Source of the DNA: a virus | IMG/VR virus record: IMGVR_UViG_3300011114_001049 | Location: 1 to 64,000 of that record | DNA: 64,000 bases | Direction: 5' to 3' (one strand) | Shown: piece by piece, positions 32,875-33,887 of the stretch | How the letters are laid out: each line of letters starts with the position of its first letter | How positions within the stretch are numbered: position 1 is the first letter of the stretch | Translations under genes and position numbers: made by a program | The notes under the pieces: model-generated | What the model was told of the DNA's origin: nothing | The model's input: the letters and a program-made list of their open reading frames with translations, nothing else | Databases searched by the model: none

Positions 32875-32912
32875 GTTTTATAAATTTTTAAGCCAACTCA
32901 CTATTCTAACCG

Positions 32913-32986
32913 TGGTCCTTCTAGGAATCGAACCTAGCACCTACTGATTATGAGTCAGTTGCTCTAACCGAATGAGCTAAAGGACC
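32913..32986 (-). tRNA. tRNA with CAT anticodon, most likely tRNA-Ile2
   Basis: GGTCCTTTAGCTCA...CTGACTCATAATCAG...GGTTCGATTCC...AAGGACCA; anticodon arm GACTCATAATC as in bacterial Ile2. Confidence 0.9.
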
Positions 32987-32989
32987 TTT

Positions 32990-33325
32990 AAAAACCCTAG
33001 CCGTTTCTATTGATCAGATAGTCTTACTAGGGTGCGATAGCTGGTTATAAGGTTGTCTATGAAGGCACCGTCATGCACCCATAAATCAGATCCAATTTCC
33101 CAGTATCTGAAAAGGACCATCTAAGTGAGCAGATCTAACGGGATGCCCGATGGTCACCTGTCCTACGTTATCTCAACGCAGGGTGGTACTGTTATAAATA
33201 ATACAAGCTCCCACCTGCCTTCTTGTATTCCGCATTTAACTCTACAGTAATGCACCCGGTGCCACGATACTTAACTATCTGCACTCCCTCTAGCAATGTT
33301 AAGTTGCCGTATGAGCCAGTCTGTC
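32990..33325 (-). ncRNA. Unannotated ~330-nt structured RNA
   Basis: ORF-free, at least 8 complementary stem pairs, late promoter TATAAATA at 33327-33334 immediately upstream. Confidence 0.65.
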
Positions 33326-33343
33326 TTATTTATAAAAATTAAC

Positions 33344-33591: not shown

Positions 33592-33712
33592 TAGTCAGGA
33601 CAGGATTCGAACCCGCAACGATACAACCTTTATGACTTCTCGCGTCCAAGAGCTTATGGACCGTTGTGTTTTCAGGGTGTGATACCATTTTCACATTACG
33701 TATTACCTGACT
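33592..33712 (-). ncRNA. Oversized tRNA-like RNA (121 nt)
   Basis: Acceptor AGTCAGG/CCTGACT-A, T-loop GGTTCGAATCC, non-canonical middle. Confidence 0.6.
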
Positions 33713-33774
33713 ATGTTGAACTTGTAAAACCCATCCTTTGCAGGGTAAGGAAACTCGGTTCAGTGTTTTTTGCG

Positions 33775-33887
33775 TAGTCAGAACAGGACTCGAACCTGTA
33801 AATTATGTTACTGTGGTTCACTAAGATTACCCACACATTCGCATAACATTATTGTCTTAAGCGTGTCTACCATTCCACCACCTGACT
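33775..33887 (-). ncRNA. Oversized tRNA-Leu-like RNA (113 nt)
   Basis: Acceptor AGTCAGG/TCTGACT-A, Leu-type D arm GGTGGAATGGTAGACAC, T arm ACAGGTTCGAGTCCTGT, long central hairpin. Confidence 0.6.

Follow-up and report, generated by a model that had tools for sequence, protein, structure and literature searches.

Does a gene-free stretch inside a phage tRNA cluster encode an RNA of its own, and what could such an RNA do? This question is raised by a locus in a window of 64,000 nucleotides (positions 1 to 64,000 of the IMG/VR record IMGVR_UViG_3300011114_001049). An earlier note, made from the sequence letters, had proposed here a highly structured and possibly novel phage RNA of ~330 nt, transcribed from its own late promoter.

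The locus and its source

The source record is a 100 kb IMG/VR contig with a CheckV completeness of 36%, and a T4-type portal protein is encoded on it (Pfam Portal_T4, 2e-58). The local gene order and the elements of the RNA are listed in Table 1. The tRNA-Met gene starts 3 nt after the U-run at the end of the stretch, and a tRNA-Glu gene and two tRNA-like genes are located upstream on the same strand.

That the stretch is free of ORFs, as had been noted before, is confirmed by the presence of TAA, TAG and TGA in all six frames of 32987-33343. Since every frame is closed by each of the three stops, no alternative code rescues a gene in the 340 nt, and coding under another genetic code is thereby ruled out. 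No relatives of the upstream 77-aa protein were found, and the relatives of a 253-aa protein were accompanied neither by synteny nor by the RNA.

Table 1 Features of the locus in the window; all RNA elements are given in minus-strand letters
Feature	Position	Strand	Remarks
97-aa ORF		minus	5'-most in the local gene order, ahead of tRNA-Glu
tRNA-Glu	34020-33948	minus	upstream of the RNA, same strand
Two oversized tRNA-like genes	33592-33887	minus	inside ~370 nt between tRNA-Glu and the 77-aa ORF
77-aa ORF	33577-33344	minus	directly upstream of the TATAAATA box
TATAAATA box	33327-33334	minus	plausible T4-type late promoter
ORF-free stretch	33326-32987	minus	340 nt between TATAAATA and tRNA-Met
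5' domain	33186-33320	minus	135 nt, begins ACUGGCUC
Ha	33313-16/33283-86	minus	5' domain helix
Hb	33304-08/33292-96	minus	loop CUUAACA (33297-33303)
Hc	33276-81/33263-69	minus	loop GUUAAG (33270-75)
Hd	33249-53/33232-36	minus	5' domain helix
He	33222-29/33200-07	minus	invariant
P0 hairpin	33162-33182	minus	CCUGCGUU, loop GAGAU, AACGUAGG
P1 hairpin	33115-33155	minus	ACCAUC/GAUGGU; inner helix P1a GGGCA/UGCUC; conserved 12-nt loop UCCCGUUAGAUC
P2 helix	33036-33107	minus	GAUACUGG/CCAGCUAUC; conserved internal loop GGGAA opposite UAUAA
P2 variable insert hairpin	33056-33085	minus	
P3 helix	32994-33033	minus	ACCCUAG/CUAGGGU; internal loop GUAAG/GAAAC; apical P3a CUAU/AUAG
P3a loop CUGAUCA	33011-33017	minus	7 nt
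U-run and spacer UUUUAAA	32987-32993	minus	fifth U (32994) closes P3; abuts tRNA-Met
tRNA-Met (CAU)	32912-32986	minus	71.8 bits
98-aa ORF		minus	after tRNA-Met

Both tRNA-like genes possess an acceptor stem AGUCAGG/CCUGACU and normal T arms, with long unrelated middles, and they are reminiscent of rnaC of phage T4, which is likewise tRNA-like with an insertion. The AGUCAGGUGGCGG... tRNA-like element recurs directly 3' of the U-run of the RNA described below in L193, L201, L208, L224, L261, L264 and L272; ARAGORN reports the L201 copy as a 94-nt tRNA-Leu.

Known RNA families do not account for the stretch. In a search against Rfam 15, at the gathering score and at E <= 10 with permissive filters, tRNA alone matched. 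The models of GOLLD, ROOL, HEARO, OLE and raiA gave no match at the gathering score or at E <= 10, those of RNase P RNA, group I/II introns, the T-box and self-cleaving ribozymes none even at E <= 10, and a tmRNA was found neither by ARAGORN nor by Rfam. These results agree with the earlier note, which had seen no hallmarks of tmRNA, RNase P or introns and had itself named the Rfam comparison as a check on novelty.

A family of related RNAs in freshwater phages

Relatives of the RNA were collected with several probes. The anticodon arm of the flanking tRNA-Met led to 79 viral loci, in four of which the RNA was found by nhmmer. These first four relatives have the 24-mer TAAGNCTNTNTGATCAANAGAAAC in common (window 33003-33026, minus), and it retrieved 25 viral loci, 73 metagenome contigs, which by their names come from several collections, one of them labelled marine, and one prokaryote contig. 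From eight sequences and a hand-set structure comprising P1, P1a, P2, P3 and P3a the covariance model R1 was built, which recovered 95 copies, 71 of them distinct, from the loci obtained via this P3a 24-mer. Two further searches were meant to escape the bias of the 24-mer probe: the P1-loop motif gave 38 new loci, 34 of which are matched by R1 at E 1e-11 or better, and a scan for the P3a stem with the loop left free gave 66 R1 matches in the first 100 new loci. All probes combined, the family comprises at least 148 distinct full-length copies in IMG/VR and in freshwater metagenome contigs. Window positions 32983-33163 (minus) match model positions 1-179 with 138.4 bits (E = 2e-37). The members range from 118 to 490 nt, with a core of 120-180 nt. 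In L342 (3530-3849, minus) two RNA cores stand in tandem, 5 nt apart, the second being more divergent (64 bits).

Among large records, a single full-core copy was found in each of three, namely the record of the window, a complete genome of 174 kb and a record of 114 kb. A weak R1 match of 32.7 bits was obtained in two others, and in the corresponding loci the score is given by a module-C hairpin alone (see below); R1 found nothing in the remaining 23 large related records. As more than 20 large related records lack the RNA, it has to be regarded as accessory. Furthermore, thirty long phage records with portal proteins 66-99% identical gave no DNA match to the region.

In 50,697 cultured-phage records, blastn of the window region returned tRNA matches only, and the RNA was not matched when a family member was used as query. 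An exact 24-mer scan of 185,579 species genomes revealed no true family member; the one contig considered, from a Flavobacterium MAG (L276), contains a chance 24-mer match behind a protein gene and hence does not belong to the family. Public runs containing the DNA of the window itself came from river, lake and freshwater metagenomes and from one viral metagenome. The carriers of the RNA are uncultured freshwater T4-like phages. A 671-nt contig of the locus with six differences was also encountered in a small DNA run labelled as a single organism (run X15, 'organism A'), which contains pieces of other family members as well and may represent an enrichment or co-culture containing such phages.

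A survey of IMG/VR published in 2023 reported 8,495 unnamed covarying motifs, some of them tRNA-like or containing terminators (PMC10690425). The same collection was mined there and here. The RNA family, or a piece of it, may be among these motifs, none of which is in Rfam 15; it is uncatalogued in the sense that it has no match in Rfam 15.

A conserved core fold

The earlier note had listed nine pairings in support of a structured RNA. All nine are perfect complements; by simple arithmetic, however, several 7-mer complements are expected in a random 340-mer, so that the pairings alone amount to no more than chance. The homologues allow the fold to be judged by compensatory changes instead, and three of the nine pairings covary: 33162-69/33175-82, 33115-21/33149-55 and 32994-33000/33027-33 correspond to P0, P1 and P3, respectively. 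A fourth, 33200-07/33222-29 (He), is conserved and, being invariant, shows no covariation.

Three others are contradicted. The pairing 33086-91/33105-10 clashes with the covarying P2 helix, 33187-92/33244-49 is not conserved, and the proposed pseudoknot 33015-22/33274-81 competes with the covarying Hc and P3a and shows zero compensatory change, its pairing potential persisting through G-U pairs only. The remaining two are possible tertiary contacts. Positions 33269-75/33298-304 are indeed complementary, but because Hb and Hc covary as hairpins they are better read as the loops of these two. In the case of 33064-70/33257-63, 6-7 of 7 positions are paired in eight sequences, with one position appearing as C-G, U-G and U-A; the 3' strand also forms a local hairpin which is found in members without the 5' domain.

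The core consists of the three elements P1, P2 and P3. Compensatory changes were found in 7/7 pairs of P1 and in 3/4 pairs of P1a in the first R1 set, and the covariation of P1 was seen again in an independent set and by mutual information. In P2 they affect 5-6 of 7 pairs, and a position supposed to be a mismatch covaries as well. The P3a stem occurs as CUGU/ACAG, CUAU/AUAG and UUCU/AGAA. For the whole core, 96.1% of cells are paired and 21/31 pairs are compensatory in the first set, obtained via the P3a 24-mer, with slid controls at 26-50% paired; in the independent set the values are 94.9% and 23/31, with slid controls at 29-48%. In both sets 0/500 shuffles reach the observed values, and over three differently probed sets the ranges are 94.9-96.1% and 21-23/31. 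A mutual-information scan of 101 sequences, which is blind to structure, placed modelled pairs at all of the top eight ranks. The compensatory changes show that the P1/P2/P3 core fold is maintained by selection.

The same alignments show that the family is read on the minus strand of the window, which is fixed by conserved G-U pairs. In agreement with this, the G-U pair of the 33162/33175 stem is present on the minus strand only, as had been pointed out previously. The covariation on the minus strand in at least 148 copies, a check proposed by the earlier note, and the missing match in Rfam together support its view of a possibly novel large phage ncRNA in a tRNA cluster.

Thermodynamic folding is in line with the core. 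P0 and the core of the window (199 nt) folded alone give the same structure (z = -2.54); the whole stretch reaches z = -1.29 on the minus versus -2.21 on the plus strand and is therefore no better than shuffled sequences on the proposed strand. The most conserved parts of the family are the P1 loop, the internal loops GGGAA/UAUAA and GUAAG/GAAAC and the P3a loop, not the terminator stem. P2 contains an insert whose length varies from 0 to ~45 nt among members. The insert hairpin is near-identical in the window, L097, L169, L174 and L188, otherwise divergent, and absent in others, a distribution which fits module exchange by recombination.

Optional 5' modules

The family is composed of a conserved 3' core and optional, shuffled 5' modules. 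The window carries a long form of ~335 nt, whereas the widely conserved part comprises only the 3' 180 nt (32983-33163). The module next to the core is P0. A P0-like hairpin of at least 6 bp that is initiated by CUG occurs within 45 nt upstream of the core in 91/136 distinct contexts; the sequences of its inner stem covary widely, and P0 is reproduced by single-sequence folding.

Homologues of the 5' domain were found in just seven distinct sequences (L121, L186, L169 (= L234), L231, L206, L217 and L228). In an RNAalifold consensus of eight similar sequences, each of the hairpins Hb, Hc and Hd contains two covarying pairs, and He is invariant. When the domain is folded by itself, z is -0.17, and the single-sequence fold prefers 33269-75/33298-304, without significance. 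The loops of Hb and Hc are complementary to each other, which could reflect a kissing contact or an alternative fold.

Other modules, missing from the window, extend the non-coding blocks of relatives to ~490 nt. One of them, module C, also occurs as a stand-alone hairpin between tRNA genes in phages without the rest of the RNA (L114:3992-4134, minus; L128:515-721, plus; L148, L168 and L175). Its form (GUAC, stem, ACGCUACCCAUAAGAACAGCGU, CCCAG, stem, UUUU) is a variant of P1, which points to the P1-type hairpin as an independent functional unit.

Self-complementarity of the P3a loop

In the sets that had not been selected on the loop, most members have CUGAUCA or UUGAUCAA as P3a loop. Rare variants, three sequences in all, are CUAAUUA (L353, L373) and UUGGCCA (L281), and their hexamers UAAUUA and UGGCCA are still self-complementary. 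Adjacent bases are unable to pair within one loop, and the change from AU to GC in the middle of the hexamer is as predicted by a pairing between two copies. A reading of the hexamer at the DNA level is unsupported, since GATC occurs at its expected frequency in the window and is not otherwise special in the genome. The self-complementary hexamer (UGAUCA, rarely UAAUUA or UGGCCA) hints at dimers formed by kissing loops. Dimerisation, if real, would not be universal, because a GACG tetraloop replaces the palindromic one in 8/35 members found via the P1 loop and the second tandem copy of L342 has the non-palindromic loop UGACGA. An intramolecular kiss between the loops of P1 and P3a via GAUC was considered and rejected, as GAAC variants of P1 lack compensation.

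Setting in tRNA clusters and ends of the RNA

The surroundings of the RNA vary, often with tRNA genes at one or both borders. Among the 71 distinct copies, 21 have a canonical tRNA within ~5 nt of the U-run (Met, Gln, Gly, Ser, Leu, Lys or Arg), six are followed by the AGUCAGG-type tRNA-like element and eight begin at most 4 nt from the 3' end of an upstream tRNA. Three arrangements have tRNAs on both sides, namely Thr-RNA-Gly, Met-RNA-Gln and Met-RNA-Ser. In L231, L186 and L206 the 5' domain begins at ACUGGCUC immediately behind a tRNA or tRNA-like gene, whose 3' end there takes the place of the TATAAATA box of the window.

This box is present where the earlier note had placed it. Eleven copies of TATAAATA were found in the window versus 7.5 expected, hence there is no enrichment; three of the other copies lie 17-28 nt upstream of minus-strand ORF starts. 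In T4 late promoters transcription starts ~6 nt after the box. With this spacing the predicted start is at ~33320-33321, which is the 5' edge of the conserved 5' domain, and a function of TATAAATA as T4-type late promoter of the RNA is plausible.

At the other end, P3 and the U-run resemble a terminator, with a G+C-rich stem followed by 5-7 U across the family. A consensus terminator scan did not report P3, because its loop is long. No RNA run is among the public runs with the window DNA, and in three metatranscriptome contig sets only short tRNA-like pieces from other organisms matched the locus.

Two kinds of protein genes recur in the neighbourhood. A gene for a calcineurin-like metallophosphoesterase is located 0.9-1.2 kb downstream on the same strand in 17 loci (L185:9463-10215, minus, and 16 others). 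The protein shows a weak partial match to a PHROG annotated as RNA ligase and may be an RNA-end-healing enzyme. In 10 loci a gene for a protein with a CHU_C domain lies near the RNA. One of them (L186:9807-12002, plus) starts ~20 nt after the RNA and encodes 731 aa with a CHU_C type IX secretion signal and a PKD-like domain; a match to the SprB repeat was sub-threshold. The CHU_C type IX secretion signal domain of this neighbour gene, and it alone, hints at Bacteroidota as hosts.

Possible modes of action

With some reserve, we lean towards reading 32987-33320 (minus) as one long, modular and independently folding ncRNA which is processed like its tRNA neighbours, acts in trans and possibly dimerises loop to loop. 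The RNA would be co-transcribed with the tRNAs, and in the window TATAAATA may in addition provide it with a separate promoter. Cleavage by RNase P at the 5' end of tRNA-Met would, by standard tRNA maturation, generate the 3' end of the RNA; where a tRNA is present upstream, its 3' processing would generate the 5' end and a stable RNA would be released. Where no tRNA comes after, P3 and the U-run would terminate the transcript. Co-transcription sits uneasily with a strong terminator directly before a tRNA, unless transcripts often read through it. The near-invariant loops and internal loops would be the sites by which the RNA itself acts in trans. From the self-complementarity of the P3a hexamer follows the most specific mechanistic guess, a loop-to-loop pairing of two copies, and the dimer or a higher assembly could serve as scaffold or sponge for some partner during infection.

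A more far-reaching version, which is possible if on the whole rather unlikely, is a compact RNA-only particle or scaffold that would assemble itself through the P3a hexamer and, in the long forms, additionally through the CUUAAC/GUUAAG loops. Such a particle, made from tRNA-cluster transcripts, would act during infection and might, for instance, sequester a host factor or weaken a defence directed against tRNA or other RNA.

The sequence might also work purely in cis, as a structured spacer and terminator of the tRNA operon. In this role it would define where transcripts end, shield the cluster from the genes downstream, or guide and protect the processing of the precursor, and it would lack any function in trans. 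In the remaining distinct copies, more than half of the 71, the P3 stem is followed by U6-7 and then just AT-rich, promoter-like DNA, and U-runs located directly before a tRNA show a tendency to be shorter or interrupted; the neighbouring and downstream genes are, moreover, invariably on the strand of the RNA. However, conservation is strongest in the loops and internal loops instead of the terminator stem, and P1 and P2 covary and are not needed for termination. The unit also moves between very different flanks and reaches up to ~490 nt in the long forms, so that we regard a purely cis-acting element as unlikely.

Somewhat more doubtful still is a decoy or sponge that mimics a host RNA, for instance an anticodon stem-loop, and thereby titrates an RNA-targeting defence nuclease or an RNA-binding protein. 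Phage tRNA genes are known to counter defences aimed at tRNA, and the RNA lies inside tRNA clusters. The 7-nt loops of P3a (CUGAUCA) and Hb (CUUAACA) both conform to CU-NNN-CA on a stem of 4-5 bp, and with this idea are also compatible the module-C hairpin that stands alone between tRNAs of other phages and the metallophosphoesterase gene downstream in 17 loci. In tRNAs position 37 is a purine, though, while it is C in both loops, and the loop variants preserve self-complementarity and not any anticodon; neither a partner protein nor a defence context was identified.

A ribozyme that by self-processing releases itself or the adjacent tRNAs from the precursor, for which the highly conserved junction nucleotides and a location between tRNAs suited to processing could be quoted, is highly improbable, given that no self-cleaving family of Rfam matches even at E <= 10, that on inspection CUGAUCA...GAAAC lacks the hammerhead arrangement, and that the boundaries are tRNA ends already cut by host enzymes.

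Comparison with known systems

Structured RNAs from tRNA clusters were encountered with species 1 and 2 of T4 and later with GOLLD and ROOL; to our knowledge, none of them has an assigned function. By analogy, the T4 species 1 and 2 RNAs (rnaC, rnaD) are the closest match to the RNA family in genomic setting and presumed maturation, as they are also small stable RNAs in a T4-type tRNA cluster that abut tRNA genes. We know of no function for either of them to date. The likeness does not extend to the molecules: R1 with filters off gave no match in the T4 region (L202 1409-1672). Unlike the RNA family, rnaC is tRNA-like and possesses a T arm, and rnaD has a different fold, without significance; a resemblance of rnaD to the P1 and P3 loops seen by eye failed the R1 test.

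Like intrinsic terminators, P3 has a G+C-rich stem before a U-run, and it is often the last element of the non-coding block. P3 differs from them by a conserved structured apex of 26 nt, which comprises an internal loop and a covarying inner hairpin, and a tRNA is often found 3-5 nt further on.

The family adds an abundant, small and well-supported RNA with a clear modular architecture to those known from tRNA clusters, and it indicates that in freshwater T4-like phages the tRNA islands do not consist of tRNAs alone. R1 could serve to annotate these regions, for which annotation is currently missing. In addition, the self-complementarity kept by the P3a variants offers a concrete and cheap handle on RNA self-assembly.

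In architecture and setting the RNA family resembles GOLLD and ROOL, the latter with a length of ~580 nt. Both are phage or prophage RNAs that are often located near tRNA islands and combine a conserved 3' part with a variable 5' part; lengths above 800 nt are frequent in GOLLD (PMC12286853). Evolutionarily conserved kissing loops join their monomers into RNA-only assemblies, the function of which is unknown (PMC12286853). The RNA family has in common with them the conserved 3' core, the optional 5' modules, the setting in tRNA clusters and a self-complementary loop; it differs in being three to six times smaller (118-490 nt) and in that its multimerisation is deduced from loop sequences alone. 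If self-assembly is true, the core of 120-180 nt would rank with the smallest naturally self-assembling RNAs of phages and be much more amenable to dissection than the ornate RNAs of 600-800 nt, and the family would be a relative of GOLLD and ROOL in kind, not in sequence.
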